Below are positions 11,783-46,256 of a DNA stretch of 64,000 nt, in pieces. Source of the stretch: a virus. Taxonomy: Duplodnaviria > Heunggongvirae > Uroviricota > Caudoviricetes. The stretch is taken from IMG/VR virus record IMGVR_UViG_3300044551_000118. One strand, written 5' to 3'. The translations under genes and the position numbers were made by a program. The number at the start of each line of letters is the position of its first letter. Within the stretch, counting starts at the first letter, position 1. The notes beneath the pieces are model-generated. The model worked only from the letters and a program-made list of their open reading frames with translations, was not told where the DNA came from and did no database searches.

Positions 11783-12044
11783 CCGAATATGGGCACATGG
11801 GCCGTATGCAGTGACTAGTACCCGTATGCGTTTTTCGTTGTTTTTTCAACGAAAATGGGCGAAACTGCATACAGAACATACAGGTGCATACGGCCCATAT
11901 GCACCCCTCAGCCCTACTGCCAGTAGGGCTTTAGCCCCCCTGCATATGAGCATATGGTTTATAGAGGCTTTGGCATGTTTTACCCCTATTTCGGGGTCTC
12001 TATAGGAAAAGCCGTATGCATATGCAGTCTCGTGCTTTTCGGGG
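11783..12044 (+). repeat. structured ~260-bp repeat element, copy 1 (MITE-like)
   Basis: Near-identical to the copies at 16538, 17176 and 18581. AT-richer than its surroundings. Contains the palindromes GCATATGC and CCCTACTGCCAGTAGGG and a hairpin with a T6 loop. Confidence 0.7.
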
Positions 12045-12196
12045 CGGAATCGACGGCGAGAACGACGCCTCCTCTGTCGTCGCCCGCGTGCATCGCACAT
12101 CCCAAATCGATGCCTCGCGAGGACGGACGCCGCAGACGCATAGCGGCGAGCTGAACACCAAGATCGGTCGAATCCACGATTGAAGGAGATAGACAA

Positions 12197-15100
12197 GTGA
12201 AACAAGGAAAGGCGACACGCGCCGCGGCGCTGGGAGCCACGCTGGCGATGCTGGCGGGAGCGGGGGCAGTATCTCCCGCCGCACTGGCGGACCCGCGCGC
12301 CCAGGATCAGCCGGGCGATTCGGGCTCGAACCCGGGCACGGGATCCACGCACACGGTGACGTTCGATACCGGCGTGGACGGGCAGACCTACCCGCCGCAG
12401 ACGGTCAACGACGCGAACGCCGCGGACCTGCCGACGCCCACGAACGGGGGGTCCCGCTTCGACGGCTGGTACAGCGGCGAAACGAGGTATGACGACAGCA
12501 CCCCCATCACCCAGGATGTGACCCTCACGGCCCGCTGGTCGAAGGCGGTCATGGTGACCGTCGAGTACGGCAACGGCCAGGAGGACGTGAGCGTGCCTGC
12601 ATTCGAGCACGACCTCTTCTCGCTCCCCGCCACGCTCGACCGCGCCGGCTATCGGTTCACCGGCTGGTCGCCCGACCCGACTACGCCGCTGAGCGAGGAT
12701 ACGACCTTCACGGCCCAGTGGGTCGCCGTGCATCAGGTGACGTTCGACTCCGACGGCGGCTCCGCCGTCGACTCCCCGCAGAGCGTGGACGACGGCACTC
12801 CCATCGCCAAGCCTGACGACCCGACGAAGGACGGACAGCTCTTCTCGGGCTGGACGCTCGCCTCTACCGGCGCCCCCTACGACTTCAGCCAGCCGGTGAC
12901 CGGCGACCTGTCGCTCAGGGCGACGTGGCGCGACGCCGTGCATCAGGTGACGTTCGACGTGAACGGCGGCACGAGCGTCGACGCGCAGTCCGTGCCCGAC
13001 AGCCAGAGCGCCGCGAAGCCCGCCGACCCGACGAAGGCAGGCGCCCGCTTCGATGCGTGGCTGGATGCCCACGGCGATCCGTACGACTTCAGCCAGCCGG
13101 TGACCGGCGACGTGAGGCTGACCGCCAGGTGGGTGACCCAGCACACGGTGACGTTCGACACCGGGGATGGCGGCTCGCCCGTGCCCTCGCAGAGCGTGGA
13201 CGACAAGGGCACCGCCACGAAGCCCGCCGACCCGACCCGCGACGGCTTCCGCTTCGACGGCTGGGACTACGACTTCTCGGCTCCCGTGACCGGGGATGTG
13301 ACCGTCACAGCCAAGTGGCATGCACTGCACCACACGGTGACCTTCGACACGGGCGGCGGCAGCGCCATCGCGCCCAAGACCGTGGACGACGGCTCCGCCA
13401 TCGGCGCGATGCCCGCCAATCCGACCCGCGCGGGCTACCGCTTCGCAGGCTGGCTCGGGACCGACGGCAAGGCGTTCAACGCCTCGACGCCCATCACGGA
13501 TGACACGACCATCACCGCCAAGTGGGTGGCCCAGGTCACGGTGACGTTCGACCCCGCGGGCGGGGCACTGGCGGCTCCCGCCTCCCAGACCTTCGACGCG
13601 AACGCGAACGCCTCCAAGCCCGCCGACCCGACGAAGGAGGACAGCGAATTCCTCGGCTGGTTCGCGCCCGGCGCGAGCGCCCCGTTCGACTTCGCGAACA
13701 CTCCGGTGACCGCCGACCTCACGCTCACGGCCCGCTGGAAGGCGCTGCACCATATGGTGACGTTCGACGCCAAGGGCGGCAAGGTGGCGGGGCTGGCGAG
13801 CCTCAAGACCACCGTGGCGACCGGAAGCCCTGCGACGAAGCCCGAAGACCCGACGTGGGCTGCCCACCGCTTCGATGGCTGGTACGGCCCGGACGGCGCC
13901 AAGTACGACTTCGCAACCCCCGTGGACGACGACATCACGCTCACGGCCCGCTGGACCGCGCTCTACGACGTGACGTTCGACTCCGAAGGCGGCTCGCAGG
14001 TGGCTTCGCAGACCGTGCCCGACGGCGAAACGATCAAGCCCGTCGCCGACCCGGCCAAGGCTTGGAACGCCTTCCGGGGCTGGACGCTCGACGGGCGGCC
14101 GTTCGCCGCGACGACTCCGATCACGAAGTCCATCACGCTCAAGGCGACGTGGGCCCCGGCTTCGCTGACCGTCGTCGCCTTCGGCGCCCTTCCCGCCGAC
14201 GGCGTGAAGACGTTCAACAGCGACAAGCCGCTGCCCGCCTCGCTGACCGTCACCGACGGCACGGACAGCTTCACGGCGCCGCAGGTCTCTCTTACGCACG
14301 ACGACAGCCAGGCGTTCGGGCGGATCGTGGACACGGGCATCTACGCCCAGTCGGCGACGGGCGGACAGCCGAGCGCGAACGTGACCGTGGTCTCCACCCA
14401 GGGCTCCGCGCTGAACGTGGACGGCATCGCCTTCGCCCGGAATGGCGACGGCACATGGTCCGCGACCGTCTCCCGCGCGCTGGACAAGGGCAACGACTCC
14501 GCGAGCCGCACCATCGCCCTCTCGGACGGCACATCCGCCGACTGGACGTGGAACGCCCCCGCCGCGGCGGCGGGCTCGGGCTTCGTGGCCCGGCAGGGCA
14601 CGGCGACGTTCGCGCTGCCCAACGGACAGAAGGGCGTGGTGCACGTCAACGCGCAGCGCAGCTACGACGCCTCGCTCTCGCTGTCCGTGAGCCGCACGGA
14701 TGCGAGCGGCAATACGTCGGCCATCCCGGTCATGACCGGCACGGCCGATGCGCCGGGCGGCCCCTACGCGCTGGGCAAGCTGCCGCACTCCGCCATCTCG
14801 GATGCCTACCGCGTGTCCTACGCGGCCGGCCCCGACGTGACGGGCGTGGACGTCGCCCCGGGCCTGGGCGCGCACGGCGAGCGCACGTTCGCCGTGACCA
14901 TCCATTACCTGGATGCGAACGGTGCGGCGCAGACCTCGAACGCCTCCATCACGCTGCCCTTCGATGCGGCCTCCGCGCAGCCGAGCGCTCCGAGCTCCGC
15001 GGCCCTCAAGGCCATCCTGGTCAACGGGCAGCCGATCGCGGGCTGGAACCCCGACGTGCTCGACTACACCATCGTCGCCCCGGACGCCTCCACCACGTAT

Positions 15101-16111
15101 CTGGTGAGCCCGCAGGCGGGCGACGGGCAGAGCGTGGTCGCGGGCGACAGCGTGAAGTCCGCCTACGCCACCAAGCAGCTGTGGACGGTGACCGGGCCGG
15201 ACGGAGCGAAGCGCGCCTACTCGGTCACGGTCGTGCGCCCGCACACGACGCCCACCGCCGACGAGAAGTTCGTCCCCGCTCTCTCCAAGGACGTCGGCGG
15301 GAGCGAGGCCGCGCCGGATGCGACCTCCACGGCGCTCAGGTCCTACGGGTACGTGGACAAGGATGGCAAATACACGCCCGTCGCGGGCGGCTCGATGGTC
15401 ATCCCCGACGGGGGGACGTTCGCCTACGAGACGTACGCGGGACAGGTCGCCAAGGTCACCCGCACGAAGGTCTCGGGCACCACGTGGAGCTACGACGTGG
15501 ATGTGTTGAGCCCTGACGGGGCGCACGTGGCCCGCACCACCGTGAAGGCCACGTACGTCACCCCGGCCACGCACGCCGCGGCCCTCACGGGCGTCAAGTT
15601 CGACGGCGCGGCCCTGAAGGGCTTCGACCCGAACAGGCACGACTACACGGTGGGCGTGGACAACCCCGACCGCTACGTGATCACCCCGCTGTTCGACGCG
15701 ATGGACGGCATGAGCGTGTCCGTGCGCAAGACGGGCCATACCGCCACGGTCACCGTGACTAGCGCGGACGGCCTGACGGTCGCGGTCTACACGTTCCACG
15801 TGACCACCCGCGAGCTCGCAGACGCCATCAACGGCGTGAAGGGCGCCTCCGCCGCGCTGACCGGGAACGGCGATGCGCTTGCGCAGACCGGCGCGAAGCT
15901 CACGGTCGGCATGGTCGTCGGACTCGCCGCCGCCGCGATCCTCTGGGCGCTCGCCGGTCTCTCGCTGGCGCTTCGCCGCCATCTGAGGAAGTCCGAGGGC
16001 GAATCCGACGTGACGGACGAGGGCGCGCAGCCCGAGGCGGCGGGCGAAGAGCCTGAAGCCCCGGAGCCGGAGGTCCCGGACGAGAGTGCGGAAGGCGCAC
16101 CGGAGGAGTAA
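12197..16111 (+). CDS. LAxTG-anchored surface protein with Listeria-Bacteroides (Flg_new-type) repeats
   Basis: Signal peptide. At least 10 repeats of the 'TVTFDxxGG...PxDPTKxGxxFxGW' module, then Ig-like regions. C-terminal LAQTG + hydrophobic segment + RRHLRK, followed by an acidic tail. Confidence 0.8.
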   Translation: MKQGKATRAAALGATLAMLAGAGAVSPAALADPRAQDQPGDSGSNPGTGSTHTVTFDTGVDGQTYPPQTVNDANAADLPTPTNGGSRFDGWYSGETRYDDSTPITQDVTLTARWSKAVMVTVEYGNGQEDVSVPAFEHDLFSLPATLDRAGYRFTGWSPDPTTPLSEDTTFTAQWVAVHQVTFDSDGGSAVDSPQSVDDGTPIAKPDDPTKDGQLFSGWTLASTGAPYDFSQPVTGDLSLRATWRDAVHQVTFDVNGGTSVDAQSVPDSQSAAKPADPTKAGARFDAWLDAHGDPYDFSQPVTGDVRLTARWVTQHTVTFDTGDGGSPVPSQSVDDKGTATKPADPTRDGFRFDGWDYDFSAPVTGDVTVTAKWHALHHTVTFDTGGGSAIAPKTVDDGSAIGAMPANPTRAGYRFAGWLGTDGKAFNASTPITDDTTITAKWVAQVTVTFDPAGGALAAPASQTFDANANASKPADPTKEDSEFLGWFAPGASAPFDFANTPVTADLTLTARWKALHHMVTFDAKGGKVAGLASLKTTVATGSPATKPEDPTWAAHRFDGWYGPDGAKYDFATPVDDDITLTARWTALYDVTFDSEGGSQVASQTVPDGETIKPVADPAKAWNAFRGWTLDGRPFAATTPITKSITLKATWAPASLTVVAFGALPADGVKTFNSDKPLPASLTVTDGTDSFTAPQVSLTHDDSQAFGRIVDTGIYAQSATGGQPSANVTVVSTQGSALNVDGIAFARNGDGTWSATVSRALDKGNDSASRTIALSDGTSADWTWNAPAAAAGSGFVARQGTATFALPNGQKGVVHVNAQRSYDASLSLSVSRTDASGNTSAIPVMTGTADAPGGPYALGKLPHSAISDAYRVSYAAGPDVTGVDVAPGLGAHGERTFAVTIHYLDANGAAQTSNASITLPFDAASAQPSAPSSAALKAILVNGQPIAGWNPDVLDYTIVAPDASTTYLVSPQAGDGQSVVAGDSVKSAYATKQLWTVTGPDGAKRAYSVTVVRPHTTPTADEKFVPALSKDVGGSEAAPDATSTALRSYGYVDKDGKYTPVAGGSMVIPDGGTFAYETYAGQVAKVTRTKVSGTTWSYDVDVLSPDGAHVARTTVKATYVTPATHAAALTGVKFDGAALKGFDPNRHDYTVGVDNPDRYVITPLFDAMDGMSVSVRKTGHTATVTVTSADGLTVAVYTFHVTTRELADAINGVKGASAALTGNGDALAQTGAKLTVGMVVGLAAAAILWALAGLSLALRRHLRKSEGESDVTDEGAQPEAAGEEPEAPEPEVPDESAEGAPEE

Positions 16112-16130
16112 TCTCCTCCAGAGACAACGA

Positions 16131-16177
16131 AAAGCCCCGCAGCAAGCCCATATTGGGCCGCTGCGGGGCTTTTTTCG
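16131..16177. terminator. rho-independent terminator
   Basis: aaaagccccgcagc...gctgcggggctttttt: a perfect stem with a T-run immediately after the surface-protein stop. Confidence 0.6.
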
Positions 16178-16185
16178 TATTCTGG

Positions 16186-16464
16186 CTAGTTCTCTTCGGG
16201 TGCCATGCCCCCGGCCCGTACGCAGGCCGCCGCGGTCAGGGCGTTGAGCCTCGCCGCATCCCCCAGCCCCATGCCGGAGTTGGCCTGGGCGAACGCCTCG
16301 TCGAGAACGGCGCGATCGGGCGCGGGGAGCGCGGAGACGATGGAGCGGGCGCGGGCGAACAGCCGCGCGTCGGATGCGGAGCGCTCGCGCAGATCCATGA
16401 GCCGGGCCCCGCCGAGCCTGTTCACCGCTCGGGCCGCATTGTCGATGTCTGCAGTGCTTGTCAT
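16186..16464 (-). CDS. hypothetical small protein
   Basis: 92-aa ORF ending just outside the bidirectional terminator. Ala/Arg-rich. Weak support. Confidence 0.3.
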   Translation of the reverse strand: MTSTADIDNAARAVNRLGGARLMDLRERSASDARLFARARSIVSALPAPDRAVLDEAFAQANSGMGLGDAARLNALTAAACVRAGGMAPEEN

Positions 16465-16504
16465 GACGGGCAGTATGCGTCAGAGGCGGAGGCTTCGATT
16501 CAGG

Positions 16505-16800
16505 GCGCCGAAAGAGGCGATCTGGTACTTTATTGCTCCGAATATGGGCATGTGCGCCATATGCGCCGGCTAGCACCCGTATGCGTTTTTCGTTGTTTTT
16601 TCAACGAAAATGGGCGAAACTGCATACAGAACATACAGGTGCATACGGGCCATATGCACCCCTCATCCCTACTGCCAGTAGGGCTTTAGCCCCCCTGCAT
16701 ATGAGCATATGGTTTATAGAGGCTTTTATATGTTTAAGGGCTGTTTCGGGGGTTCCATAGGAAAAGCCGTATGCATATGCAGTCTCATTGTTTTCGGAGC
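16505..16800 (+). repeat. structured repeat element, copy 2 (with extended left flank shared with copy 4)
   Basis: Core 16538..16800 with terminal inverted repeat GCTCCGAA...TTCGGAGC. The extra ~33-bp left flank gcgccgaaagaggcgatctggtactttattgct is shared with 18548..18580. Confidence 0.7.
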
Positions 16801-17175
16801 TGAATCTGCAAGAAAAGCGCATGTCGCGGAAAAACGCCCATCCCGCTTTTCATCGGACCCGAAAAGATGCGAAGAGCAGTCAAGAAAGGAGCATCGCCTG
16901 CCGACGAAAATGCGCAAGTCCGAGGAACGCTCAGATGTGCCCTCCTCGGACTTGCGCGATCCGAAAACCACGAAAACGACTCTCCGCGACCCCGAGGAGC
17001 AATGCGGGCAAAATCTATCGCCTGTGACGCGAAAGCTCGTCAGAGGCCATTCTCGTAGCCCTCAGAGGCATGTCCGCGCTTCTTCGCCGTCGCACTGGGC
17101 AAGAGCATCTGCGAAAAGGGGGCCCGTTCTTCGAGAAGAAGGGCCCCGATGGCGCAGAGTCCAGAACTTTCAGCC

Positions 17176-17439
17176 TCGAATATGGGCATATGCGCCGTAT
17201 GCGCCGGCTAGCACCCGTATGCGTTTTTCGGCGTTTTTTCGCCGGAAATGGCGAAAACTGCATACGGAACATACAGCTGCATACGGGCCATATGCACCCC
17301 TTAGCCCTACTGCCAGTAGGGCTTTAGCCCCCCTGCATATGAGCATATGGTTTATAGGGGCTTTGGCGTGTTTAGGGGCTGTTTCGGGGGTTCCATAGGA
17401 AAAGCCGTATGCATATGCAGTCCCGTGCTTTTCGGGGCC
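17176..17439 (+). repeat. structured repeat element, copy 3
   Basis: Same architecture as the other copies. Carries the compensatory hairpin variant cggcg-tttttt-cgccg (other copies: cgttg-tttttt-caacg). Confidence 0.7.
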
Positions 17440-17557
17440 ATATCTACGAAAAAGAGGACGCCTCTGCATTCGTGGTCCAGAACTTTCGCAAATGCCGCCC
17501 TGCGAGCAATCTATCGCCCATGATGCGAAAGGACGCCACGGGCGATCCTCGCGCCTC

Positions 17558-18532
17558 TCAGCGCCCATCCAGCGCGGGCGGAAGGCGCCAGCCGGCGGCG
17601 GAGGGCAGCCCCAGCCGCGCGACGAGCGTATCCATGTTCGCGCGCATCCAGTCGCGTTCGGGGGGCGCGCCCTGTGCGACCGGCGCGAAGCCGTCATCGC
17701 AGGATATCCGCTCCAGCCAGCAGGACGCGGGCGCCGCGTGCATGCGCGGCTCCCCGGCGCAGGCGCGGTCCAGGCGCGAGAGCACGGAGCCGTCGCGCGT
17801 GGCGTCGAGCCAGCACACGTGGATATGCTCGCAGCCGGGGTGGGCCAGCGCCTGGCGCCAGCGCTGGAACTTGCCCTCGATGCCGGTCGTGCTGGCGGTC
17901 GTCTCCACGCACAGCGCGGTCGAGGCGTCCATGAGGATGGCATCGGGCCCGCCCCGGCCCATGAGCGCGTCGCCCGTCATGTCGCAGAACCGCCCGAACG
18001 CCTCGCCGTACGCGGCCCAGCCCTGCCGGACGCCAGCCAGTCCTATCTCGGCGCTCATGAGATTGTGCCGCTCGGCCTGCCGGGCGCGGTGATGAGGCCC
18101 GGGCCCGAGGGAGGCTATCTCGACGGGGGAGGCCCCCAGCGCTTCGAGCGCATCGTCGACGTCATGCACGGACAGGCGCAGCGCCATGAACGAGGCGCGG
18201 AACGGGCTGGCGGACATACGCCCGTCCGTGGATACTGGGAAGCCCGCCTCCAGGATCCCCGCCCCTATCAGATCGAGATAGAGCCGGGAGGCTGGCGTGG
18301 CAGGCACCGACGGGTCGAAGCGGCGCATCTGGCCGGTCTCCAGCGTCCGCCACGAGTGGACGAGCCGGATGGCGCGGAGCGTCTGCGCAAGGCGCGCCCG
18401 CAGCCTCGCCTCCGCTTCGGCACGCTCCGGCATCCAGCCCGGACGAGAGTCTTCGGACGGCTCCAGCCAGTTGAGGAAGGCCCCGGCGAGCCAGTGGGAG
18501 GGGTCGAAGGGATCGAAAATCTGCTGCGGCAT
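17558..18532 (-). CDS. hypothetical protein (single gene bracketed by two direct copies of the structured repeat)
   Basis: 324-aa ORF with high GC3 and no recognisable catalytic motif. Sits exactly between repeat copies 3 and 4. Confidence 0.45.
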   Translation of the reverse strand: MPQQIFDPFDPSHWLAGAFLNWLEPSEDSRPGWMPERAEAEARLRARLAQTLRAIRLVHSWRTLETGQMRRFDPSVPATPASRLYLDLIGAGILEAGFPVSTDGRMSASPFRASFMALRLSVHDVDDALEALGASPVEIASLGPGPHHRARQAERHNLMSAEIGLAGVRQGWAAYGEAFGRFCDMTGDALMGRGGPDAILMDASTALCVETTASTTGIEGKFQRWRQALAHPGCEHIHVCWLDATRDGSVLSRLDRACAGEPRMHAAPASCWLERISCDDGFAPVAQGAPPERDWMRANMDTLVARLGLPSAAGWRLPPALDGR

Positions 18533-18547
18533 GAGGGACGGCTATGC

Positions 18548-18845
18548 GGCGCCGAAAGAGGCGATCTGGTACTTTATTGCTCCGAATATGGGCATGTGCG
18601 CCATATGCGCCGGCTAGCACCCGTATGCGTTTTTCGTTGTTTTTTCAACGAAAATGGGCGAAACTGCATACAGAACATACAGGTGCATACGGGCCATATG
18701 CACCCCTCATCCCTACTGCCAGTAGGGCTTTAGCCCCCCTGCATATGAGCATATGGTTTATAGAGGCTTTTATATGTTTAAGGGCTGTTTCGGGGGTTCC
18801 ATAGGAAAAGCCGTATGCATATGCAGTTTCGCTGTTTTCGGGGCC
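18548..18845 (+). repeat. structured repeat element, copy 4
   Basis: Core 18581..18845 plus the shared left flank. Downstream flank contains GTCCAGAACTTTC, which is also present next to copies 2 and 3. Confidence 0.7.
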
Positions 18846-18951
18846 ATATCCGCGAAAAAGGGGATGTCGCGCCACTCGCAGTCCAGAACTTTCGGATGGC
18901 CTCGCCCCTAATCGAGGCCATCCTCGCACCTTCCGACGCATACCGCCCTTC

Positions 18952-20322
18952 ATGACAGACACTCCCGAAGACTCTTTGGCATTCGACGCCGAGGCGATGG
19001 CGCGGCTCGACGATCCGAACGCCGTCACGTTCCTGACCGGCAAGGCGGGCAGCGGCAAGAGCACGCTCATCCGCCACTGGCTTCGCACCTCGGCGCCCGC
19101 CAACACGCTGGTCGCGGCGCCCACGGGCATCGCGGCACTCAATGTGAACGGGGTCACGCTCCATCATCTCATCCACGCCAAGCCCGGCATCACCCCCGAC
19201 GAGGCGGAGGGGCTGGGCCATCGCTGGAAGGGTTCGCCCTACAGCGACCTCGGCGCCCTGGTCGTCGACGAGATCAGCATGGTCCGCGCCGACCTCATGG
19301 ACTGCCTGGATCGGTTCCTCAAGGCCGCGCGCGGCTCCACGCTGCCGTTCGGAGGCCTCAAGCTCGTGCTGGTGGGCGACCTGGCGCAGCTGCCCCCGGT
19401 GGTCACGCGCGAGGACGCGAAGGCGTTCGATGGCTCGATATGGCCCGGCCCGTGGTTCTTCCAGTCCCATGCGATGGCCGAGGTCATGAAGGGGCTGGAC
19501 GTGGGACTGCGCGGCATCGAGCTCACGGAGATCCACCGCCAGAGCGACCCCGCGTTCATCGCGGCTCTGAACGCTCTGCGCGACGGGCGTCCGTCCCGCG
19601 GGTCGCTTGCGACGCTCAACGCCCGCGTGGCGCCGATGGGCGCGGACTGCGGCATCGTGCTCGCGGCCACGAACCGGCGCGCGGACGTCATCAACGCCGC
19701 CATGCTGGCGCGCCTACCCGGACCATCCGACGTCTTCACGGCGCAGATCGGCGGCGAGTGGGCGAAGTCGCTGAGGCCCGCCCCCGAGCGCCTGGAGACG
19801 CGGCCCGGCATGCGGGTCATGATGCTCACGAACGATCAGGGGGGCCTGTGGGCGAATGGCTCGATGGGGGAGCTTCTTCGCGTCGAGGACGGCGTGGCTG
19901 AGATCAGGCTCGACGACGGCAGCATCATCGAGGTCGGGCAGCACTCGTGGGAGGTCACCCGCCCTGTCGTGCGCGAGGTGGAGATGAACGACGGAGCGGG
20001 CGGCACGCGGAAGCGTAAACGGCTAGATTCGGTGGTCATCGGCTCCTACCGCCAGATGCCGTTCGCGCCCGGCTGGGCCGTGACCATCCACAAGTCGCAG
20101 GGCAAGAGCTTCGAGCGCTGCCGCATCGAGCTGCCGCCCGGCCCGCTGTTCGCCGCAGGGCAGGCGTACGTGGCCCTGAGCCGCGCCACGGGGCTGGACG
20201 GGCTGACCCTGAGCCGTCCGCTCTACCCCCGGGACGTCATCGCCGACCCCGCCGCGCTGGGCTTCCTGGAGGAGCTGCGCAAGGGCTTCCCGCAGCCGGC
20301 GGTGCAGGAAGGGCTGTTCTAG
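18952..20322 (+). CDS. Pif1/RecD-like (AAA_30 + UvrD_C_2) 5'-3' DNA helicase
   Basis: Walker A 'GKAGSGKST', 'VVDEISMV' (Walker B), 'LVGDLAQLPPV', and C-terminal 'TIHKSQGKSFE'. Typical of Pif1/RecD/TraA-family helicases on mobile elements. Confidence 0.8.
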   Translation: MTDTPEDSLAFDAEAMARLDDPNAVTFLTGKAGSGKSTLIRHWLRTSAPANTLVAAPTGIAALNVNGVTLHHLIHAKPGITPDEAEGLGHRWKGSPYSDLGALVVDEISMVRADLMDCLDRFLKAARGSTLPFGGLKLVLVGDLAQLPPVVTREDAKAFDGSIWPGPWFFQSHAMAEVMKGLDVGLRGIELTEIHRQSDPAFIAALNALRDGRPSRGSLATLNARVAPMGADCGIVLAATNRRADVINAAMLARLPGPSDVFTAQIGGEWAKSLRPAPERLETRPGMRVMMLTNDQGGLWANGSMGELLRVEDGVAEIRLDDGSIIEVGQHSWEVTRPVVREVEMNDGAGGTRKRKRLDSVVIGSYRQMPFAPGWAVTIHKSQGKSFERCRIELPPGPLFAAGQAYVALSRATGLDGLTLSRPLYPRDVIADPAALGFLEELRKGFPQPAVQEGLF

Positions 20323-24867: not shown

Positions 24868-24873
24868 CGCACG

Positions 24874-29460: not shown

Positions 29461-29710
29461 GCTCTCCATATGCGTCCCGGATGGGCGGGTATGATCGATT
29501 CCCGCGAGCGACAAGAGCATTAGGGATATGGGGCCGGACGAGCTGAAGGCTGCGGCGACAGAGAGCGAACAGGCGCGCGCCGCAGTGGACGCCGAGCGAC
29601 GACGGCGATGGGATTCGTTCAAGGAAATCCTGAAAACGCCTTTCAAGAGCATCCTCGACTAGGCGCGACGCGCCCGGCGTCCATTAACTGAATCCCCGTA
29701 AATCATCGAA

Positions 29711-29948
29711 CTGCATATGCATACGGCTTTTCCTATGGAACCCCCGAAACAGCCCTTAAACATGCCAAAGCCTCTATAAACCATATGCTCATATGCAGGG
29801 GGGCTAAAGCCCTACTGGCAGTAGGGATGAGGGGTGCATATGGGCCGTATGCACCCGTATGTTCTGTATGCAGTTTCGGCTGTTTTCGTTGAAAAAACGC
29901 CGAAAAACGCATACGGGTGCTAGCCGGCGCATACGGCGCATATGCCTC
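29711..29948 (-). repeat. structured repeat element, copy 5 (inverted orientation)
   Basis: Reverse complement of the 16538-type element. Lies between two divergent gene clusters. Confidence 0.7.
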
Positions 29949-30418
29949 TTTCTGATGCGATGCGCCGCATCTCCCGACGCACACAGCGGGGCATGACACT
30001 GCTCAATGATTATCTGAAGCCTCTTGAGAAGTCCGGCGTTCTGGAGCCCTCCGAGCTCGCGGAGCGCATCCTCGCAGGCCTTTCCAAGCCCGACGCCAAG
30101 TCGTTGCTCGCCGAGGTGCTGCCCGGAGCCATCGCCACGGCCCAGTCCCGCGAGCGCATGCGCCCCTCGCGCACGCCGACCATGACCAGCGGCAAGGTCG
30201 CGGCCCAGCGGGCCATGTTCTCGCCCTTGTTCCATGTAGTGATTCCGCTCGCCTCCGGGCGCAAGCTGCTCGCGGACTGCGTGAAGGGCGATCTGCTCGA
30301 ATACGCGGAGACCTTGCGCACGCACGCCCGCATGACGATGGCGAAGGCGGACGAGTACGAGCGCATGGCGAACGAGCTGCCGGACGATACGACCACAGTC
30401 ATCGAGGCGTTCGGATAG
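29942..30418 (+). CDS. hypothetical protein
   Basis: 158-aa ORF starting at the edge of repeat copy 5. Alternative start at MTLLNDY, 29992. Confidence 0.4.
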   Translation: MPLSDAMRRISRRTQRGMTLLNDYLKPLEKSGVLEPSELAERILAGLSKPDAKSLLAEVLPGAIATAQSRERMRPSRTPTMTSGKVAAQRAMFSPLFHVVIPLASGRKLLADCVKGDLLEYAETLRTHARMTMAKADEYERMANELPDDTTTVIEAFG

Positions 30419-30674
30419 GCGGGGTGCATGCAGGAGAGCGAGGAAGCGGCGATTCCTCCCCGCCCACAAGGGGCGGAGTTTCCTCGCCGCAAATCTCATG
30501 AAGCCCCCGCGCGAAGCCCAAGCATCTCTCGGACAACCAAGAAAAAGACGGCTTCGCGCGGGGCCTTTTTCCTCAAGCGGGACGCATCAGAGAGGCAACG
30601 AGGGCGCTCAGAGGTCGTCCGAACAGCCAATATGCTGGCAGCGCCCTCGCCCAACCTATAGAAGGAGAACCCAT

Positions 30675-31505
30675 ATGAAGACTCTAGATGACCCGGCTCT
30701 GTCTAAGCTCGCGGACATGCTCGATGATCTGGAAGGCGAGCGCAAGGCCACTGCGAACCGCGTGCGCATCCTCACCGCCGCCACGCCCGACGAGGACGGC
30801 GTCATGCGAGGCTTCGCGCTGTCCGCCGACGATCCGTCCGTAAGGACCATGGAGGCGCTCAACGAGGGGCTCTCCAAGCTGGAGCACGAGGCGGTCCTCC
30901 AGCTCCAGCGGGTCATGCGCAAGCACCCGCTCGGCGCATGGCAGAGGGCGCAGAAGGGCGTGGGGGAGAAGACCCTCGCCCGTCTGCTCGGAGCCATCGG
31001 AGACCCGTACATCCGCCGCGACGACGGGCAGCCGCGCACCGTGCACCAGCTCTGGGCGCTGTGCGGGCTCCACGTCATCGAGGGACGCGCTGCAAAGCGC
31101 ACGAAGGGCGTGCAGTGCAATTGGAGCACCACCGCCAAGACCCGGGCCTACTTGATTTCCGAGGCCATCGTCAAGGCCGGCGTGCGCACCGCCGAGGACG
31201 GCTCCAAGATCGCCCTCTCGCCCTACGCGCAGGCGTATCTCGACCGCCGCGCCCACACCGCGCTCACGCATCCCGAGGCGAGCGCAGCGGACGAGAGGAA
31301 GGGTCTGGGCTGGACAAAGGCCCACGCCCACGCGGATGCCATGCGCATCGTCTCCAAGACCTTCCTGAAGGCCCTGTGGCGCGAGGCCAAGCGATTGCAC
31401 GAGGAGGAAGGCGGGGACGACGGCTCGCTTCTTCTGGTAATCGATGGAGTGAAAGACTCCGACTTCGCCGCGCTTGAGAGCGAAGCGTCGCTCGCGAGCG
31501 CCTGA
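30675..31505 (+). CDS. hypothetical protein with a region resembling the C-terminal domain of IS110-family transposases but lacking the DEDD/RuvC-like N-domain
   Basis: Good RBS (AAGGAGAA). 'KGVGEKTLARLLGAIGDP...LWALCGLHVIEGRAAKRTKG...' loosely follows the Transposase_20 pattern (GiG..tA..Ll.eiGD...r.....l.a.aGL.P...sG). The N-terminus is coiled-coil-like. Confidence 0.45.
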   Translation: MKTLDDPALSKLADMLDDLEGERKATANRVRILTAATPDEDGVMRGFALSADDPSVRTMEALNEGLSKLEHEAVLQLQRVMRKHPLGAWQRAQKGVGEKTLARLLGAIGDPYIRRDDGQPRTVHQLWALCGLHVIEGRAAKRTKGVQCNWSTTAKTRAYLISEAIVKAGVRTAEDGSKIALSPYAQAYLDRRAHTALTHPEASAADERKGLGWTKAHAHADAMRIVSKTFLKALWREAKRLHEEEGGDDGSLLLVIDGVKDSDFAALESEASLASA

Positions 31506-35257: not shown

Positions 35258-35502
35258 GGCCTTGCCTCGCTTTCCGCATCGACTCGGGGGCTATGCGCAC
35301 AGCCGCGCATGATGCAGCAAAGAAAGCCGCTGCGCTGAGGCAGCAGAGGCGCATCGGATATGCTCCCGGCGACTGCTCGCCGAGGGCCTCCTTATATCCG
35401 CCCCGACCTTAGGCATAGCCCCTGTCCGGGCGGGCCGCGAAGCAGGACGCATGCCGCTCATGTGAAAGCGGGAAAGTCTCCCGCGACAAGGAGAGGAAGA
35501 AC

Positions 35503-38001
35503 ATGCGCAAGCAGTTCATCGCAGGAGCCGCGGCGGCCATCGCCATCGCGGCGCTCGCAAGTCCGTCGGTCGCCATGGCCGACGAATCCAACGGGGTCCA
35601 GCCCGACGCGGTCGGGGCTGTCCAGAGCGCGAAGAGCGCTGCGGCAGATGCTGCGCAGGCCACGGCCAAGGCGCAGGAAGCCACGCCGCCGCAGGTGCGA
35701 GCGGCCCAGAGCAACGTGACGCAGGCCGCGCAGGGCGTGACTCAGGCCCAGAGCAACCTGAACGCCGCACAGAGCGCAGCCGGGGCCGCGGCGGCCCAAG
35801 TGCCGCCCGCCCAGAGCGACCTGAATGCCGCGAACGCGCAGGTCTCGCAGGCCCAGAGCGCGAATGACGCCGCCCGGATGAACCTCGAAGCGGCCCAGTC
35901 CGACCCCGCCGTGCAGCAGGTCGCATCGGCTCAGGCCAGCCTCGACCAGTCCGCCAAGAACCTCGACGCCGCCTCGCAGGCGGTGAACGACCAGCAGAGC
36001 AGGGTTGATGACCTGTCCAGGCAGTCCGAGACGGACGCCAAGGCCCAGAGCGATGCTCAGGCCAAGGCCGATGCAGCCGACAGGGCGAAGGGCGCCGCCT
36101 CGCAGAATCTGACCGCAGCCAAGGAGCAGCCCGCCCCGACCCAGCCGGATGCCTCCGATGCCGCCAAGGCGGACGCCTCCGCGAAGTCCGCCGATGATGC
36201 CGCCAAGGCATCCGATGCCGCCGCGAGCAAGGCCAAGGGCATGGCGGACGCGGCCTCCAAGGCCCTCTCGGACGCCAATGCCGCAGCCGCCAAGGCCAAG
36301 GGCATGGCGGACAACGCGAACAGCCCTACCGCCAACAGCGCCGTGGGCTTCTTCGACGCCACCGGCTTCCCCGGCGCGGCTCAGGCGCTGACCGACCCGA
36401 AATCGCAGCTCGGCCCCACCAGCGACGCCTCCAAGGACACCAGCTGGCTGCACGTGGGCGACAAGGACTCCTCCACGAGCCTCGACAACATGCTCAAGGC
36501 CCTGGACCTGATCGACAAGGGCAACGCCATCCGCAAGTCGTTGGGCCTTCCCGAGTGGAAGATCAACTACAATCAGACCGCGCTGGCCGAGCTCGCCGCC
36601 GACTACAACACGTACTCCGGCAACATGGAGCACCTGTGGGGCACGTACACGTGGAACCAAAACCTCGCGTGGGGCTGGAACAACCCGTACGACGGCTGGT
36701 ACACGGCCGAGAAGGCGACCTTCGACGCCTACGCCAAGGACCATCCGGGAATCAGGGGCCTGCCCGCCTATCGGGTCTCCCAGCAGTACCCCGGCATCTA
36801 CAAGCAGGTGGGGCACTACCTCAACATCATCGACCCCGGCGTGAACGTGACCGGCTTCGCCCACGCCATCGGCGGCTACTACGGCGTGACGGATGCGCAG
36901 GACGCCGCGTGGATGGACGACTACGACACCAACCCGCACATCTTCACCACCGCGCAGGCCCGCTCCCAGATCGCGCGATACCAGAGCGACCTGAAGAACG
37001 CCTCCAAGCTCTACGCCGACGCGAAGGCCAAGGTCTCCAAGGCCTCCACCGCCGCGGCAGCCGCGCAGAGCGCCCTGAAGGCGTTGCAGACCCGAGCCGA
37101 GGCGGCCCACGCGAACGCGGATAGACTCGCTGCGGATGCCAAGAGCGCTCAGGCCGCGTACGACAAGGCAAAGGCCTCCTATGAGGCGAAGAGCGCCAGC
37201 CGCACGCAGGCCATCGCCGCCGCGCAGAGCGCCTACGACAAGGCATCCGCCGACGCCGCGGCCGAGCACTCCGCGCTGTCGCAAGCCAAAGCCAACGCCA
37301 CACAGCTCGCCGCCTCTCTGAACAAGGCAAAGGCCGCGCTGCCCGGAGACATCGCCGCCCGCGACGCCGCAGCCAAGGCTGTAGCCGCCGCCAAGGTCAA
37401 CCTCGCCAAGGCGAATGCCAAGGGCGATGCCCTGGCACGGCTCGAAGCCGCGCAGGACAAGGCCGCGAAGGCCGGCGCGGTGCTCGAAGCCGCTAAAGCC
37501 AAGGCGTCGGACGCCGCCAAGGCGCTTGAGGCCGCCAAGGCGAACGCCGAGACGACCGCGAATGCCGCAAGCGAGGCGCAGCGCAAGCTGGATGCCGCGC
37601 AGCGCGCGCTGACGGACGCCAAGGCCGCTCTGGAGCAGGCCAAGGCCGATGTCGCCAAGGCCGCATCCGACGCCGCCAAGGCCAAGGCCAAGGGCGACAA
37701 GGCCGCATCCGATGCGACGGTTGCGGACGCGGCGGTGAAGGTCGCCAAGAAGGCCGCCCAGCAGCCTGCGGCAGCGGTCGTGTCCGCGAGCGAGCAGAGC
37801 GCCTCCGCCCCGAAGAGCGAGACCAAGGATGACGCCAATGCGGCGCAGGCCCCCAAGGGCATGGTCGTGACCGGAGCCACGAACGCCGGCTCCGAGCCGC
37901 TGGCGTCCACGGGAGCCAGCGCGGACGTCGCGCTCGGCCTCATGGCCATCATGGCGGTTGCCGGAGTCGGCTGTACGCTGGTGCGCCGCCGCTTCGAGTA
38001 A
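35503..38001 (+). CDS. LAxTG-anchored surface protein with Ala-rich coiled coils and a CAP/SCP-like domain
   Basis: Signal peptide. Long AQSA/AKAxA heptad-like repeats. The central block 'GNMEHLWGTYTWNQNLAWGWNNP...GHYLNII' resembles CAP (SCP/TAPS) signatures. C-terminal LASTG + TM + RRRFE. Confidence 0.7.
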   Translation: MRKQFIAGAAAAIAIAALASPSVAMADESNGVQPDAVGAVQSAKSAAADAAQATAKAQEATPPQVRAAQSNVTQAAQGVTQAQSNLNAAQSAAGAAAAQVPPAQSDLNAANAQVSQAQSANDAARMNLEAAQSDPAVQQVASAQASLDQSAKNLDAASQAVNDQQSRVDDLSRQSETDAKAQSDAQAKADAADRAKGAASQNLTAAKEQPAPTQPDASDAAKADASAKSADDAAKASDAAASKAKGMADAASKALSDANAAAAKAKGMADNANSPTANSAVGFFDATGFPGAAQALTDPKSQLGPTSDASKDTSWLHVGDKDSSTSLDNMLKALDLIDKGNAIRKSLGLPEWKINYNQTALAELAADYNTYSGNMEHLWGTYTWNQNLAWGWNNPYDGWYTAEKATFDAYAKDHPGIRGLPAYRVSQQYPGIYKQVGHYLNIIDPGVNVTGFAHAIGGYYGVTDAQDAAWMDDYDTNPHIFTTAQARSQIARYQSDLKNASKLYADAKAKVSKASTAAAAAQSALKALQTRAEAAHANADRLAADAKSAQAAYDKAKASYEAKSASRTQAIAAAQSAYDKASADAAAEHSALSQAKANATQLAASLNKAKAALPGDIAARDAAAKAVAAAKVNLAKANAKGDALARLEAAQDKAAKAGAVLEAAKAKASDAAKALEAAKANAETTANAASEAQRKLDAAQRALTDAKAALEQAKADVAKAASDAAKAKAKGDKAASDATVADAAVKVAKKAAQQPAAAVVSASEQSASAPKSETKDDANAAQAPKGMVVTGATNAGSEPLASTGASADVALGLMAIMAVAGVGCTLVRRRFE

Positions 38002-38011
38002 TCGGCATACG

Positions 38012-38066
38012 AGACGGCAAGGGGCCGTCTGCAGGACTTCCTGCGGACGGCCCCTTGCCGTCTCGC
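38012..38066. terminator. long perfect hairpin terminator
   Basis: gagacggcaaggggccgtctgcagga-cttc-ctgcggacggccccttgccgtctc immediately after the surface-protein stop. Confidence 0.6.
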
Positions 38067-38089
38067 TATTCAAGATTTGAGCGGCAAGG

Positions 38090-38426
38090 ATTCCCCGCCC
38101 CTTGTGGGCGCGGGAGGAATTGCCGTCCTTTCGCCCGCCCTTCCAGACGCATACATGCACTCATGAAACGGAAGAGCCCGAGCGCCAAGCGGCGGGAGAG
38201 TGCGTCTTCAAGTTCTCGCGTCCGCGTGCTCAACATGCCTCTCGCCTTCACCGAGGAACAGTTCGCGCTTCTGCTTCATGCAGCCGACCTCTACAGTCGC
38301 TGCTGGCAGTCGATAACAGAGTGCGCTGCGCCCATGATGGACGAAGCGCCTGCGATGGCGTCTGCTCTGCAGACAGTCGCAGGAATCACGCTCACGTCCA
38401 AGCCGCAGGGATCGTCCCTGCGGTAA
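38090..38426 (+). mobile_element. tnpB: IS200/IS605-family remnant: left-end-like hairpin plus 5' fragment of tnpB (OrfB_IS605 N-terminal region), copy 1
   Basis: 'RVRVLNMPLAFTEEQFALLLHAADLYSRCW' matches the TnpB N-terminal 'lk.rl.Pt.eQ...l......R..yN' region. ~250 bp (including upstream ccccgccccttgtgggcgcggg) is ~85% identical to 55705..55965. The ORF is truncated after ~90 codons. Confidence 0.55.
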
Positions 38427-38509
38427 TTGACATCCAGCCGCACATCCGTGAAACATGTTGCGCGTAGTCTTTTCCGATGTCAGAGAAGACCGAAAACAAG
38501 GAGAGAACC

Positions 38510-40724: not shown

Positions 40725-40845
40725 GATGCCGCCTCTTCCTTCGTCAGACGTTCTCTATGCGATACGGACCGATCAGCGCATGGCGCGCGGCGAACAGAAG
40801 CGGGTCGTCGAGGAAGAACGCCAGGTCCGACATGCTTGCGCAGCA

Positions 40846-41637
40846 TTACGGCCTCCATTCCATAGGGCTGTTCACGGCCCTGAATGTCCGTTCGTCGCCG
40901 TCCGCCTCCATCAGGAGCATGCTCCCGTCGCCGATAGGCTCGCCGTCCGGCGTGGCGCTCATCGTGTCGCAGAAGAAGAGCGACCCGGAGCTGCGCACGG
41001 TCGGCATGGGCGTGTGGCCCACTACCTGCGGATATCGCCTGTCGCCGAACGCCATCAGCTCCCCGGCGTCCGTCCAGAGCGGCGAGGGGACGGCATTCTC
41101 TGCTCCGCCGCGAGCCGGGCCGACATCGCACATGAGCGAAGGCAGACGGAACGCGCCGAGGATGAAGAGATTGAGCAGGGATGCGATCTCATCCGGCGTA
41201 TCCTCGCCATGCCCGTGCGCATCCAGCCACTGGCGGGTGACGCCCGCGTGCGTAGCCAATACCTTGCCATCCGACCATGCGACCTTGGGGCAAAGCTCGG
41301 CCATGACCGACTCGTGGATGTGCCGGTAGGCTCCGGGGCGGAAGCCCGGGCAAAGGCCCGCGTCGCGCAGCTCGCGGCACTGAGTGCGCCCCACGACGTA
41401 GGGGATGTCGTGGTTGCCGAGAAGGTACACGCTCTCGCAGGGCAGCTGGCGCGTCCATCGCACCAGCGCGTCGTACGCCTCTATCTGCCGCTTGTTCGAG
41501 ATATTCCAGTCGTCCATGTAGTCGCCGAGGAACACCATGCGGTCGGCTGCGGTGATGCGGGCCAAGTGACAGGCCCGCTGCATCGCGAGATCGGACTTGG
41601 CATGGATGTCGCCCACGAAGAGCGTGCGCTCAGACAT
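40846..41637 (-). CDS. calcineurin-like metallophosphoesterase
   Basis: Motifs GDIHAK (GDxHG-like), GDYMDD (GDxVDRG-like) and GNHD, in the canonical order of the PPP/ApaH-type phosphoesterase fold. Confidence 0.75.
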   Translation of the reverse strand: MSERTLFVGDIHAKSDLAMQRACHLARITAADRMVFLGDYMDDWNISNKRQIEAYDALVRWTRQLPCESVYLLGNHDIPYVVGRTQCRELRDAGLCPGFRPGAYRHIHESVMAELCPKVAWSDGKVLATHAGVTRQWLDAHGHGEDTPDEIASLLNLFILGAFRLPSLMCDVGPARGGAENAVPSPLWTDAGELMAFGDRRYPQVVGHTPMPTVRSSGSLFFCDTMSATPDGEPIGDGSMLLMEADGDERTFRAVNSPMEWRP

Positions 41638-41639
41638 TC

Positions 41640-42286: not shown

Positions 42287-42540
42287 GACTTGGCCTCCGC
42301 ATCCGGATACCGCTGCGCGAATTCCGCATCGTCGAAGAGGAGTATGGATTCGATCTCGCCATACGGGATCATCATGAGCACGTCCACCTCCGGACCTTCA
42401 TGGGACATGAAGTTCCTGAAGCAGGCGGGGTCCTCCACGATGCGACCTATGGGGCGGAAAGACAGGAAGTGTTCGTCCTCGCCGTATCCGTCCGCGACGA
42501 GGACGCGGCTGCGGCTCCTGACATTGACGAGGATCCTCAT
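42283..42540 (-). CDS. hypothetical small protein
   Basis: 85-aa C-terminal part of a longer Arg-rich ORF. Start chosen at MRILVNV. Coupled to the upstream gene. Confidence 0.35.
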   Translation of the reverse strand: MRILVNVRSRSRVLVADGYGEDEHFLSFRPIGRIVEDPACFRNFMSHEGPEVDVLMMIPYGEIESILLFDDAEFAQRYPDAEAKS

Positions 42541-43073: not shown

Positions 43074-43149
43074 GGCTCTTTTCCTTTCGATGGGCAGAAT
43101 CGCCTATGATTCCTACATGCGTCCTATTCGCGCAATCCTGTGACGCATA

Positions 43150-43714
43150 TGCGTATCCAGCGCGCGACGTCAACGTTCTCCATAAAGACGATGGCGGCGG
43201 CAGAAGCCCCTTACTGCTTCGTAACGGACCGGGCCAGCGCCGCGCGCATTGCTTTCCTTCGGGACGCATACGAAACACTGCGCGGCGTCAACGTCGCTGC
43301 GTCGAATGGTTTCAACAGCATTCGGCGCGGAGCGATGGCGGGGAGCAGCCCGATCGATCACCTCGGCAAGCCACGACCCCCGCCAGCGCCGCGCCTTTTC
43401 CTCTTATCGGACGCATAGCGCGTATCGCACGGCGTCAACGTCGCCGCCGCGGATCCTTTGAGACAGTCCGTGGGCGGATCGATGGCGGGGATAGGACGAT
43501 TTAGACAACCTTTTTCGTCTGCTGAAGCCCCGCCAGCGCCGTGCATTTTCCTTATCGGACGCATAGGCATTATCAGAACGCGGCGTCAACGCCGCTGCCC
43601 TGCGGGCTTTACGGGATCATTCACTCGCGGGATTGCAGAACGATGGCGGGCGAGGATGGTCTGATAACCTTCCACCCGATGACCCCGCCAGCGCCGCGCT
43701 CTTCCTCTTTTCAG
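43150..43714. repeat. tandem array of four ~120-150-bp non-coding direct repeats
   Basis: Unit starts near 43150, 43270, 43417 and 43565. Conserved blocks per unit: GCGxCGTCAACG, GATGGCGGG, CCCGCCAGCGCCGCGC and TTTCCTxTTATCGGACGCATA. Confidence 0.6.
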
Positions 43715-44404: not shown

Positions 44405-44483
44405 ATGGACTGCGATATGCGTCGGAAGACGCCAGCGGCCCGTGCAGGAGACATCCCGCACGGGCCGCTCTGTTCGATGTCTT

Positions 44484-45683: not shown

Positions 45684-45691
45684 GATGCCCT

Positions 45692-45973
45692 CTATGCGAA
45701 CCGGAGCTGGCGATACGGCCCGTACGCCTCGATGAGGCTGGCGGGCACCACGTCCAGACGGGCCAAGCGATTGCGCTCCGATATCCATGTGACATGGGGC
45801 ATCTCCGCTTCGCGGTAGAGGCCGGGCGCCAGATGCTTCGCGTTCCCCTCTTCATGCCGGGCGACGACCAGCTCGGTGCGGTCGCCCTCGGCGAGGTAGA
45901 GGTGTCCGTCCGGAGTGCGGTAGGCGCGCTGGCGGGTGTTGCGGATGAGATAGGGAGTCGGGTAGGTCTTCAT
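45692..45973 (-). CDS. hypothetical small protein immediately upstream of family member 2
   Basis: 93 aa, ending 9 nt before the downstream start. Confidence 0.4.
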   Translation of the reverse strand: MKTYPTPYLIRNTRQRAYRTPDGHLYLAEGDRTELVVARHEEGNAKHLAPGLYREAEMPHVTWISERNRLARLDVVPASLIEAYGPYRQLRFA

Positions 45974-46023
45974 GTCCCGAGGAATGCGTCCTGCAGCAGA
46001 ATCGCTTCGAGCAGGGCAGGCAT

Positions 46024-46256
46024 GCCGTCCTATGGCTTTCCTAAGAGGACCCCCGAAAACCCCCTATATATCCTATTATCCCCCTATAATCCATAGGACG
46101 GTATGTATAGGGGGTTTAATACTTACTCGCAGTAGGGCTCAGGGCGTCCTATGGCCCATAGGACACCGTATGATCCATAGGACGTTTCCGCTGTTTTCGA
46201 AGCCGAAAAGCCGCAAAACGTCCTATGGATCATACGGCGTCCTTTCGCGCGCATGC
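46024..46256 (-). repeat. divergent variant of the structured repeat element (copy 6)
   Basis: Same block order as the inverted 16538-type element, but the GCATATGC/CCGTATGC units are replaced by TCCTATGG/CCATAGGA units. The ...cccccgaaa..., ...gcagtaggg... and ...gttttcg...gaaaa... blocks are retained. Confidence 0.5.

Follow-up and report, generated by a model that had tools for sequence, protein, structure and literature searches.

Low-copy plasmids bear iteron and parC arrays (R1 parC and pB171, for example), rolling-circle plasmids and ICEBs1 have single-strand origins (ssoA, ssoT, and ssoU), and known intergenic repeats include the VCR/attC sites of chromosomal integrons, REP/ERIC/Correia-type repeats, and miniature inverted-repeat transposable elements (MITEs). 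Omega, the ParB of pSM19035, binds parS/operator arrays of contiguous heptads (PMC9499535). Frpo and ssi are single-strand promoters of the leading regions of conjugative plasmids (PMC11541004; Masai and Arai, 1997, as cited there), and in Frpo the sigma-70 -35 and -10 hexamers are reconstituted in a hairpin stem (PMC11541004). Here, we analyzed a non-coding repeat of ~270 bp that occurs in six copies (c1 to c6) in 64,000 nucleotides of DNA from a Caudoviricetes record (IMG/VR IMGVR_UViG_3300044551_000118); this whole stretch is referred to as the window. The omega arrays, on the best reading of the repeats, and Frpo/ssi, on a rival one, appear to be their closest analogues, although the defining features of both are only partly present. 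We tentatively suggest that the phased boxes of each copy form a platform of double-stranded DNA for a co-evolving, element-encoded binding protein, and that this platform serves as a shared operator and/or as a pairing/partition site in divergent promoter regions.

A non-coding repeat built from short boxes

The family was found by a repeat search and by a profile of five copies. The repeat search returned direct copies at 11749-12048, 16504-16803, 17142-17441, and 18548-18847 (84-98% identity) and an inverted copy at 29694-29946 (89-93% complementary). An nhmmer profile of these five recovered each of them at E~1e-100 and identified a sixth, minus-strand copy (46266->46031) as a true homolog (E=8e-24). 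On the plus strand lie c1 (11776..12054), c2 (16504..16809, core 16531-16809), c3 (17170..17447), and c4 (18548..18853, core 18575-18853); c5 (29687..29961) is inverted, and c6 (46031..46266) is also on the minus strand. Identity is 85-98% among c1 to c5 and 60-64% between c6 and the others. The GC content of the copies is 0.48-0.54, versus 0.659 for the window. Hence, the AT-richer family of six or more ~260-bp copies that a first-pass annotation had read from the letters is real and far beyond chance. The ~33 bp of extra left flank that it saw in common between c2 and c4 is likewise present, and the wider coordinates of these two copies include it.

The same annotation had seen no sustained open reading frame. 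Frames of 82-107 codons without a stop are indeed present on both strands of c1 to c5, but their GC content at third codon positions is 0.39-0.49, versus 0.73-0.92 in the window genes, and c6 keeps none of them. For these reasons we rejected a coding reading, and the element is non-coding. Rfam 15 covariance models gave no match at the gathering threshold in the window and none at E<=1 on c2 to c4 or on the tandem array of a related element (L105, described in the next section). A distant-mode blastn search with one copy found no match in phage and plasmid collections, and neither did an exact 46-mer in genome contigs, an exact 29-mer in viral contigs, or a degenerate 28-mer in metagenome contigs. 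Since repeat-bearing contigs were recovered by searching for contigs that encode window proteins, these collections evidently lack the source samples. The family seems not to have been described previously.

All copies are assembled from short boxes. On the plus strand of c1 to c4, a weak end motif (GCNCCGAA) is followed by 3-4 boxes (RTATGCGCC) at 9-nt spacing, a hairpin (TTTTTCGNNG-T6-CNNCGAAAA), and 3-4 boxes of opposite orientation (TGCATACNG) at 10-nt spacing. Next come an invariant core (CCCTACTGCCAGTAGGGCTTTAGCCCCCC) and two direct boxes (TGCATATG AGCATATGG), and the right end consists of a ~54-nt T-rich segment, two inverted boxes (CCGTATG CATATGCA), and a second end motif (TTCGGNGC). 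The two box sets of the left half flank the short T6 hairpin, read outward, and face away from each other; this half forms a quasi-palindrome that, in every copy, matches its own reverse complement at E 1e-6 to 1e-10. Direct reading bore out the two palindromes proposed earlier, GCATATGC and CCCTACTGCCAGTAGGG, the latter being the conserved core in the center of the copy. A-type boxes, (C/T)GCATA(C/T)G, number 12-13 per copy, versus ~0-1 per 250 bp elsewhere.

The divergent copy c6 follows the same plan with other boxes (GTCCTATGG/CCATAGGAC), such that TCCTATGG/CCATAGGA replace GCATAYGG/CCRTATGC. A swap of units within a preserved block order had been proposed for this copy. The swap is there; the co-linearity is not, as c6 is inverted and looked co-linear because the left half is a quasi-palindrome.

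Promoter regions and related elements

Genes of the window carry a promoter box of their own. The 8-mer GACGCATA occurs 35 times in the window, versus 1.3 expected, with examples on the plus strand at 2246, 4903, 7688, 8213, 18935, 33630, 38146, and 55771 and on the minus strand at 62712-62719, 55632, 54882, 44416, 21341, 16474, and 11684. At least 19 leaderless genes have it 8-9 nt ahead of their ATG, and genes with a Shine-Dalgarno sequence have it 30-75 nt upstream; because of these positions it appears to behave as a -10-like promoter box. A -35 partner was looked for in the window and none was found. The box looks like an element-specific, -10-only promoter that would imply a dedicated sigma-like factor, in the manner of T4 late promoters. 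It is enriched in some related elements (L004, L007, and L184) and absent in a Collinsella prophage and in unrelated actinobacterial loci.

Five of the six copies sit between divergent gene starts, each with the element's own promoter box, the exception being c3. The copy c1 separates a leftward leaderless gene (ATG 11674, promoter box 11684-11691) from a rightward Flg_new surface-protein gene (box 12135-12142, GTG 12197), and c2 lies 24 bp from the promoter box of a minus-strand gene of 92 amino acids (aa; ATG 16464). The copy c4 is placed between a 324-aa gene (ATG 18532, minus strand) and a PIF1-like helicase (box 18935-18942, ATG 18952). The box-rich end of c5 abuts the promoter of an operon (ATG 29993) that comprises a 141-aa partner gene, a tigRNA, and tasA; its other end is ~220 bp from a Phage_VG64-domain gene (ATG 29469, minus strand). 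Lastly, c6 is flanked by a promoter box on the plus strand (46268-46275) and by a gene on the minus strand that starts at 45974.

Related elements were located via a helicase profile. The helicases of the lineages that share the plan are only 52-59% identical; a search of GTDB genomes with the helicase profile gave relatives only at <=42% identity, and tblastn of the helicase against plasmids gave <=35%. In L105, a 224-kb contig, five same-strand copies of a 274-nt element stand in tandem, 352-528 bp apart, in a gene-free gap of 1.9 kb, and the last copy abuts a promoter box plus ATG. In each, a box hairpin precedes the core (AGCCCTACTGCCGTAAGGG), three direct boxes follow it, and a T-rich 37-nt loop separates these from three inverted boxes. 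The L105 box, TGTATTCAG/TGAATACA (GTATTCA), is present 34 times and nowhere outside the array. In L184 (a 187-kb IMG/VR contig) and its relative L007, the copies are built from ATGCATACA boxes (23 copies; box ATGCATAC), and one L184 copy immediately precedes the helicase promoter, the position that c4 has in the window. The conserved core CCCTACTGCC..GGG is common to the window and L105; it was not found in L184, which keeps the box hairpins.

The common plan is thus a box hairpin, a conserved core, direct boxes, a T-rich loop, and inverted boxes, with the box itself reading GCATAYG in c1 to c5, TCCTATGG in c6, GTATTCA in L105, and ATGCATAC in L184/L007. Hence, the lineages have the architecture in common while the entire set of boxes is exchanged, and c6 shows that two box types can coexist in one element. 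The earlier suggestion that the short units behave like co-evolving half-sites gains support and extends to related elements, where the same architecture is filled with wholly different boxes.

We noted that the A-type box is identical to the element promoter box (CGCATAC) and that the strand facing the leftward gene has a tandem row of three of them. A cluster of promoter boxes as the sole explanation of the copies is weakened, however: the boxes of c6 and L105 are unlike the promoter box, yet the promoters that flank them use GACGCATA-like boxes.

Two further observations concern the related elements themselves. L105 (3297-3583) starts beside genes for tRNA-Gly/Cys/Val and beside an integrase whose DNA is 70% identical to that of the window integrase, which suggests integration at a tRNA site. 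In L184 (5290-5400), the first copy is followed by a helicase-gene fragment (..GMRVMMLSDDP..), so the repeat and the start of the helicase were duplicated together.

Binding platform, hairpin signal, or mobile element

In the model that we put forward, each copy would act in cis as a double-stranded DNA cassette, neither gene nor transposon. An element-encoded, sequence-specific protein, probably a small dimer, would load cooperatively on the 12-13 boxes of a copy and polymerize along contiguous boxes. Because divergent promoter regions hold every copy but c3, occupancy would co-regulate the flanking operons; instead of this, or on top of it, the integrated element of 150-220 kb could use the copies for pairing or partition. 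Protein and box specificity would drift together, with c6 and the related elements keeping the plan and changing the boxes, and the copies would spread and homogenize by duplication and gene conversion rather than by transposition. The anatomy and positions of the copies, the switching of their boxes, the strain polymorphism, and the mosaic evolution are observed; the existence and identity of the binding protein and its regulatory or partition role are inferred.

The model draws on the tandem arrangement of the boxes, on their joint replacement within an unchanged layout, on the lack of a preferred strand, on the location in promoter regions, on the identity of the A-type box with the promoter box, on the signs of gene conversion among copies, and on the non-coding sequence that matches no RNA family. 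Centromere and operator arrays have at least four contiguous short boxes; the window copies have 3-4 per arm and 12-13 in all, L105 and L184 show the same, and a promoter-region location, likewise typical of such arrays, holds for five of the six copies. Inside each arm, the boxes are repeated in tandem at 9-10-nt spacing, about one helical turn, in four independent box lineages. Such repetition would be needed by a protein array, is typical of arrays of protein sites, and seems unnecessary for a stem.

The same arms could instead be long stems. The copies would then be strand-specific nucleic-acid hairpins, either a signal on transferred or replicating single-stranded DNA (a single-strand origin, a priming signal, or an Frpo-like promoter of a conjugative element) or a structured multicopy small RNA, with the core unpaired or forming a small hairpin; we regard this as a serious rival, somewhat less probable than the platform. 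Predicted folds, comprising two long imperfect hairpins and a small core hairpin, beat shuffled sequences (z -2.3 to -4.1), but both strands fold about equally, as RNA and as DNA, with similar energies and z-scores, and the consensus folds of the two strands (-67.6 versus -65.8 kcal/mol) differ in topology. Wobble pairs show no strand-specific excess either, as mismatches that wobble on one strand are balanced by those of the other. Varying stems around a conserved core recur in L105, and L184 keeps the box hairpins and not the core sequence. The host element looks conjugative/integrative (integrase, orphan methylases, CHAP plus lysozyme, FtsK-like ATPase, and LPXTG proteins in the window; a VirB4-like AAA_10 protein in L105/L007), and such elements have a single-stranded stage. 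Four copies in the window share a strand; the other two of the six are on the opposite one. Frpo is defined by a sigma-70 -35/-10 pair inside the stem (PMC11541004), and the interval 16100-19100, with three copies, holds none. There is also no Rfam match and no clear terminator.

Several observations weigh against the platform model, and part of them would fit a strand-specific hairpin equally well. The consensus fold contains 11 pairs with double changes, versus 2.9 +/- 1.2 in shuffles and 0-4 in slid controls. These measures of covariation lie above the controls, but nearly all compensatory changes stem from c6, which keeps only 46/76 predicted pairs, and they arise automatically when one box is swapped throughout in both orientations. 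Three lineages preserve the mirror symmetry, and in c3 both arms of the central hairpin cgttg-T6-caacg are changed (cggcg-T6-cgccg). This is the compensatory change noticed earlier; elsewhere the same hairpin is uncompensated, in c5 (cggcg...caacg) and in the L008 copy of c1 (cgtcg...caacg; L008 is a close relative, introduced below). The loops are T-rich on the strand of the downstream gene in all three lineages, and L105 has its five tandem copies on one strand with no genes between them. The symmetry with its double changes, the T-rich loops, and the L105 array are the points that would suit a hairpin. The helical phasing of A/T tracts is marginal in the window (p 0.01-0.065) and not significant in L105. 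No single boxes were found at other promoters, and hence no dispersed operator network, and no pair of paralogous DNA-binding proteins matching the two box types was found. Neighboring small proteins have no DNA-binding match in Pfam, NCBIfam, or PHROG and yielded no binding protein. A ribbon-helix-helix (RHH) or helix-turn-helix ParB, or a ParA ATPase, was not recognized among the proteins scanned, which come from 64 kb of an element of at least 150 kb.

Within the hairpin alternative, a more specific version has a still lower probability in our judgment: the repeats might be structured, strand-specific signals of a new class, belonging to giant integrative/conjugative elements of high-GC Gram-positive bacteria in the gut. 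They would be either a Gram-positive counterpart of Frpo/ssi, with hairpins that act on single-stranded DNA as promoters or priming sites and are read by the element's own GACGCATA-type transcription machinery, or a multicopy scaffold RNA that titrates an element-encoded protein with its tandem boxes, and stems and partner protein would co-evolve between lineages in both cases. As for the structured non-coding RNA proposed at the outset, our results neither support nor exclude it.

The other initial proposal was a MITE-like element, possibly mobilized in trans by an IS200/IS605-type transposase. We consider any form of non-autonomous mobility, including a site-specific cassette moved by a transposase or recombinase of the host element, improbable. 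The ends of a copy are complementary over 8 bp (GCTCCGAA/TTCGGAGC), perfectly in c2 and at 7/8 positions in c1, c3, and c4, so the terminal inverted repeat reported earlier exists; it is short, weak, and missing in c5 and c6. Copy number does differ between closely related strains. A 209-kb relative (L008/L099), 98.5-98.8% identical, has c1, c4, c5, and c6 at the same places and lacks c2 and c3. What is absent from L008 is a block of 1,056 bp (16485..17540) that consists of c2, a 340-bp spacer, c3, and ~90 bp; L008 has 8 unrelated bp (TGCAGGCA) in its place, with no target duplication at the junctions. This composite block is the only presence/absence difference of copies between the compared strains, and its ends, which fall 19 bp and ~90 bp beyond the element cores, match none of the element ends. 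The empty sites in relatives by which mobility was to be judged thus come down to this block: the 98.5%-identical relative has no precise, element-sized empty site, and four loci are occupied in both strains. A scan of the flanks for target-site duplications (TSDs) gave only chance matches of 5-6 bp, and c1, c2, c4, c5, and c6 have no duplication. The window encodes a tyrosine integrase (1-1284), and no transposase, of the IS200/IS605 type or any other, was present among the ~45 window proteins scanned, the PHROG "transposase" match being TasA.

The one repeat that does bracket a copy is a 13-mer, GTCCAGAACTTTC, found on the plus strand to the left (17159..17171) and right (17475..17487) of c3 and to the right of c4 (18881..18893). 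The first-pass annotation had placed it downstream of c2, c3, and c4; it does not directly follow c2. In strain L012, the 13-mer itself stands to the right of the c4 ortholog, and to the left is a version that differs by one base (GTCCAGAACTTTTC). The 13-mer is over-represented (4 matches versus 0.7 expected). It is not a duplicated target, because the sequence is the same at different copies; it would fit a recombination junction or extended flank.

Copies evolve differently from the DNA around them. Orthologous copies are less alike between strains (88% for c4 and L008b) than their flanks (98.8%) and are mosaics of other copies. Because of this divergence and mosaicism, the data indicate that the copies evolve in concert, by gene conversion among functional repeats. 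Overall, the family spreads by duplication and recombination, and the hallmarks of a MITE are missing. Short-read contigs end inside copies, as they also would at a mobile repeat.

The proximity of c5 to tasA, ~700 bp away, raised a last candidate, that the repeats are guide-RNA arrays of the neighboring TIGR-TasA system, or its targets. The open reading frame 30498-31505 (plus strand) matches NCBIfam NF052498, "TIGR-Tas RNA-guided endonuclease" (170 bits against a cutoff of 100); Pfam gave no match. The boxes are palindromic with a 9-nt period. We re-implemented the published rules for stem-loop TIGR units (PMC12045711; bioRxiv 10.64898/2026.09.09.750476): pairs of box C (CNA), a 9-nt spacer, and box D (YG) that lie within 15 nt and inside a stem of 5 bp or more. 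The same script found 5-7-unit arrays in the positive controls (L101-L103), upstream of Tas homologs and without any repeat-like element there; in the window, it found a single unit (30500-30568), and the copies contain no unit. The two spacers of that unit have no target in the window, the copies included, and c1 to c4 and c6 are 12-18 kb from tasA. Since there is no unit in the repeats and no repeat at other Tas loci, we refute the array reading, and any role as array or target has only a minute probability. The copy c5 would merely occupy the upstream region of the tasA operon.

The single tigRNA (plus strand) has an unusually long stem of 18 bp, reads CCA-agcatctct-CG-gacaa-CCA-agaaaaaga-CG followed by a T-run, and lies inside the open reading frame as called. 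The true tasA gene is probably 30675-31505 (276 aa, Shine-Dalgarno AGAAGGAG), and its product would probably be TasA-like with essentially only the Nop-type domain. The partner gene (29993-30418, plus strand, 141 aa) belongs to phrog_4604, a conserved upstream partner of the homologs; in prophages of the Collinsella type, TasA homologs are accompanied by 5-7 units and by this partner gene upstream.

The host element and described systems

Besides the integrase, whose domain is the generic Phage_integrase, the window encodes two orphan DNA methylases, lysozyme and CHAP hydrolases, an FtsK-like ATPase, several LPXTG/SpaA/Flg_new surface proteins, the PIF1-like helicase, and VRR-NUC, Fic, and GmrSD_C domains. 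Exact window proteins occur on JGI contigs of 150,294 and 209,659 bp. The window is thus part of an integrated mobile element of a family 150-220 kb in size, and because one Tas homolog carries the NCBI annotation Collinsella, the host may be Coriobacteriia-like.

Strains of the element also differ in genes. Two blocks are absent from the 209-kb relative, one of 3 kb (35495-38496) with an 832-aa Ala/Lys-rich surface protein and one of 875 bp (40755-41630) with a metallophosphatase gene. L099 has a 3-kb cassette on the plus strand in which a TROVE/Ro60 (vWA) gene (18091-19689) is preceded by a YrlA-like Y RNA (17833-17945; Rfam RF02553, 42 bits, E=3e-7, below the gathering score). This cassette is present in other strains and missing from the window strain, where the insertion point lies between 26620 and 26667. 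A Y-RNA reading of the repeats was rejected: YrlA occurs only in the Ro60 cassette of the other strain and in none of the repeats.

Other repeated sequences carry promoter boxes too. Three tandem units of ~147 bp (43256-43700, plus strand) each start with a promoter box (GGACGCATA), continue with GGCGTCAACG(T/C)CGC, and close with a G/C hairpin and a T-run; they resemble three small transcription units that may be non-coding. A second repeat family (38061-38323 versus 55674-55948, 73-87% identity) combines a hairpin and a promoter box (GACGCATAC) with the first part of small paralogous genes (ATG 38163 and 55788), and a 45-bp piece of it is inverted at 30458-30502, directly upstream of the tigRNA. 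Among proteins, the genes at 9409-9966 (plus strand), 48274-48999 (minus strand), and 51979-52659 (minus strand) share a near-identical N terminus of ~30 aa (..QPRKPDGRFDFDPNAGA..DLP..) ahead of differing C-terminal domains, one of them Fic/DOC; the shared part could be a common signal for the secretion or transfer of polymorphic effectors. Directly left of c1 are tandem paralogs of 40% identity and unassigned function (9963-10517 and 10543-10998, both on the minus strand).

If the box arrays are loading platforms for a protein that the element encodes, they would be control or segregation hubs of a seemingly undescribed family of 150-220-kb elements in gut Coriobacteriia-like bacteria. The cargo of these elements includes adhesins and orphan methylases as well as an RNA-guided DNA binder (TIGR-TasA), to which some strains add Ro60 and a Y RNA. 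Box switching would then be a natural case of co-evolving protein-DNA specificity, relevant to incompatibility or immunity between related elements. If the copies are single-strand hairpin signals or RNAs instead, the Frpo/sso concept would come to cover another phylum and another kind of promoter. In either case, the repeats explain why these elements are fragmented in short-read assemblies and offer a marker for finding relatives.

Compared with described systems, the repeats share features with several and coincide with none. Stem-loop TIGR arrays are also palindromic units near tasA with a module length of 9 nt; the repeats have no box C/9-nt spacer/box D pairs and no variable spacers, and are absent from other Tas loci. 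Like VCR/attC, REP/ERIC/Correia-type repeats, and MITEs, they are imperfect-dyad intergenic repeats of 120-300 bp and high identity, mostly in the same orientation between genes, at which assemblies break, and gene cassettes vary between strains. They differ in that they have no RYYYAAC/GTTRRRY core sites at their ends (which read GCNCCGAA...TTCGGNGC, against an integron reading), no IntI, and no TSDs, and the variation is not cassette-precise. The copies are also confined, within the data examined, to one mobile element rather than spread genome-wide. The origins ssoA, ssoT, and ssoU of ICEBs1 and rolling-circle plasmids are, like the repeats, non-coding imperfect palindromes of 150-300 nt with varying stems and short conserved unpaired motifs, and are orientation-dependent; the repeats, however, lack RSB and CS-6 motifs and occur in multiple copies in both orientations, and no Rep or rolling-circle replication module was identified.

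The two closest comparisons correspond to the two leading readings. As with Frpo/ssi, dispersed homologous repeats of ~300 nt, several per element, form long imperfect hairpins upstream of open reading frames in a transmissible element. Unlike Frpo/ssi, the stems have no sigma-70 -35/-10 hexamers, the arms are tandem boxes, the copies occupy both strands (four plus and two minus), and the host lineage is high-GC Gram-positive. Differences from the omega arrays of pSM19035 (PMC9499535) lie in the layout, since the window boxes form mirrored sets split by 30-55-bp loops and a conserved core within units of ~270 bp, 5-6 per element (in tandem in L105). They lie also in the protein, as no ParA, ParB, or RHH gene was recognized among the scanned window proteins, and the boxes are putative sites. 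What the repeats have in common with the omega arrays is a set of several dispersed, non-coding arrays of a short box (7-11 bp), at least four boxes each, contiguous, direct and inverted, and located in promoter regions, with box and protein, the latter putative here, both specific to the lineage of the element.

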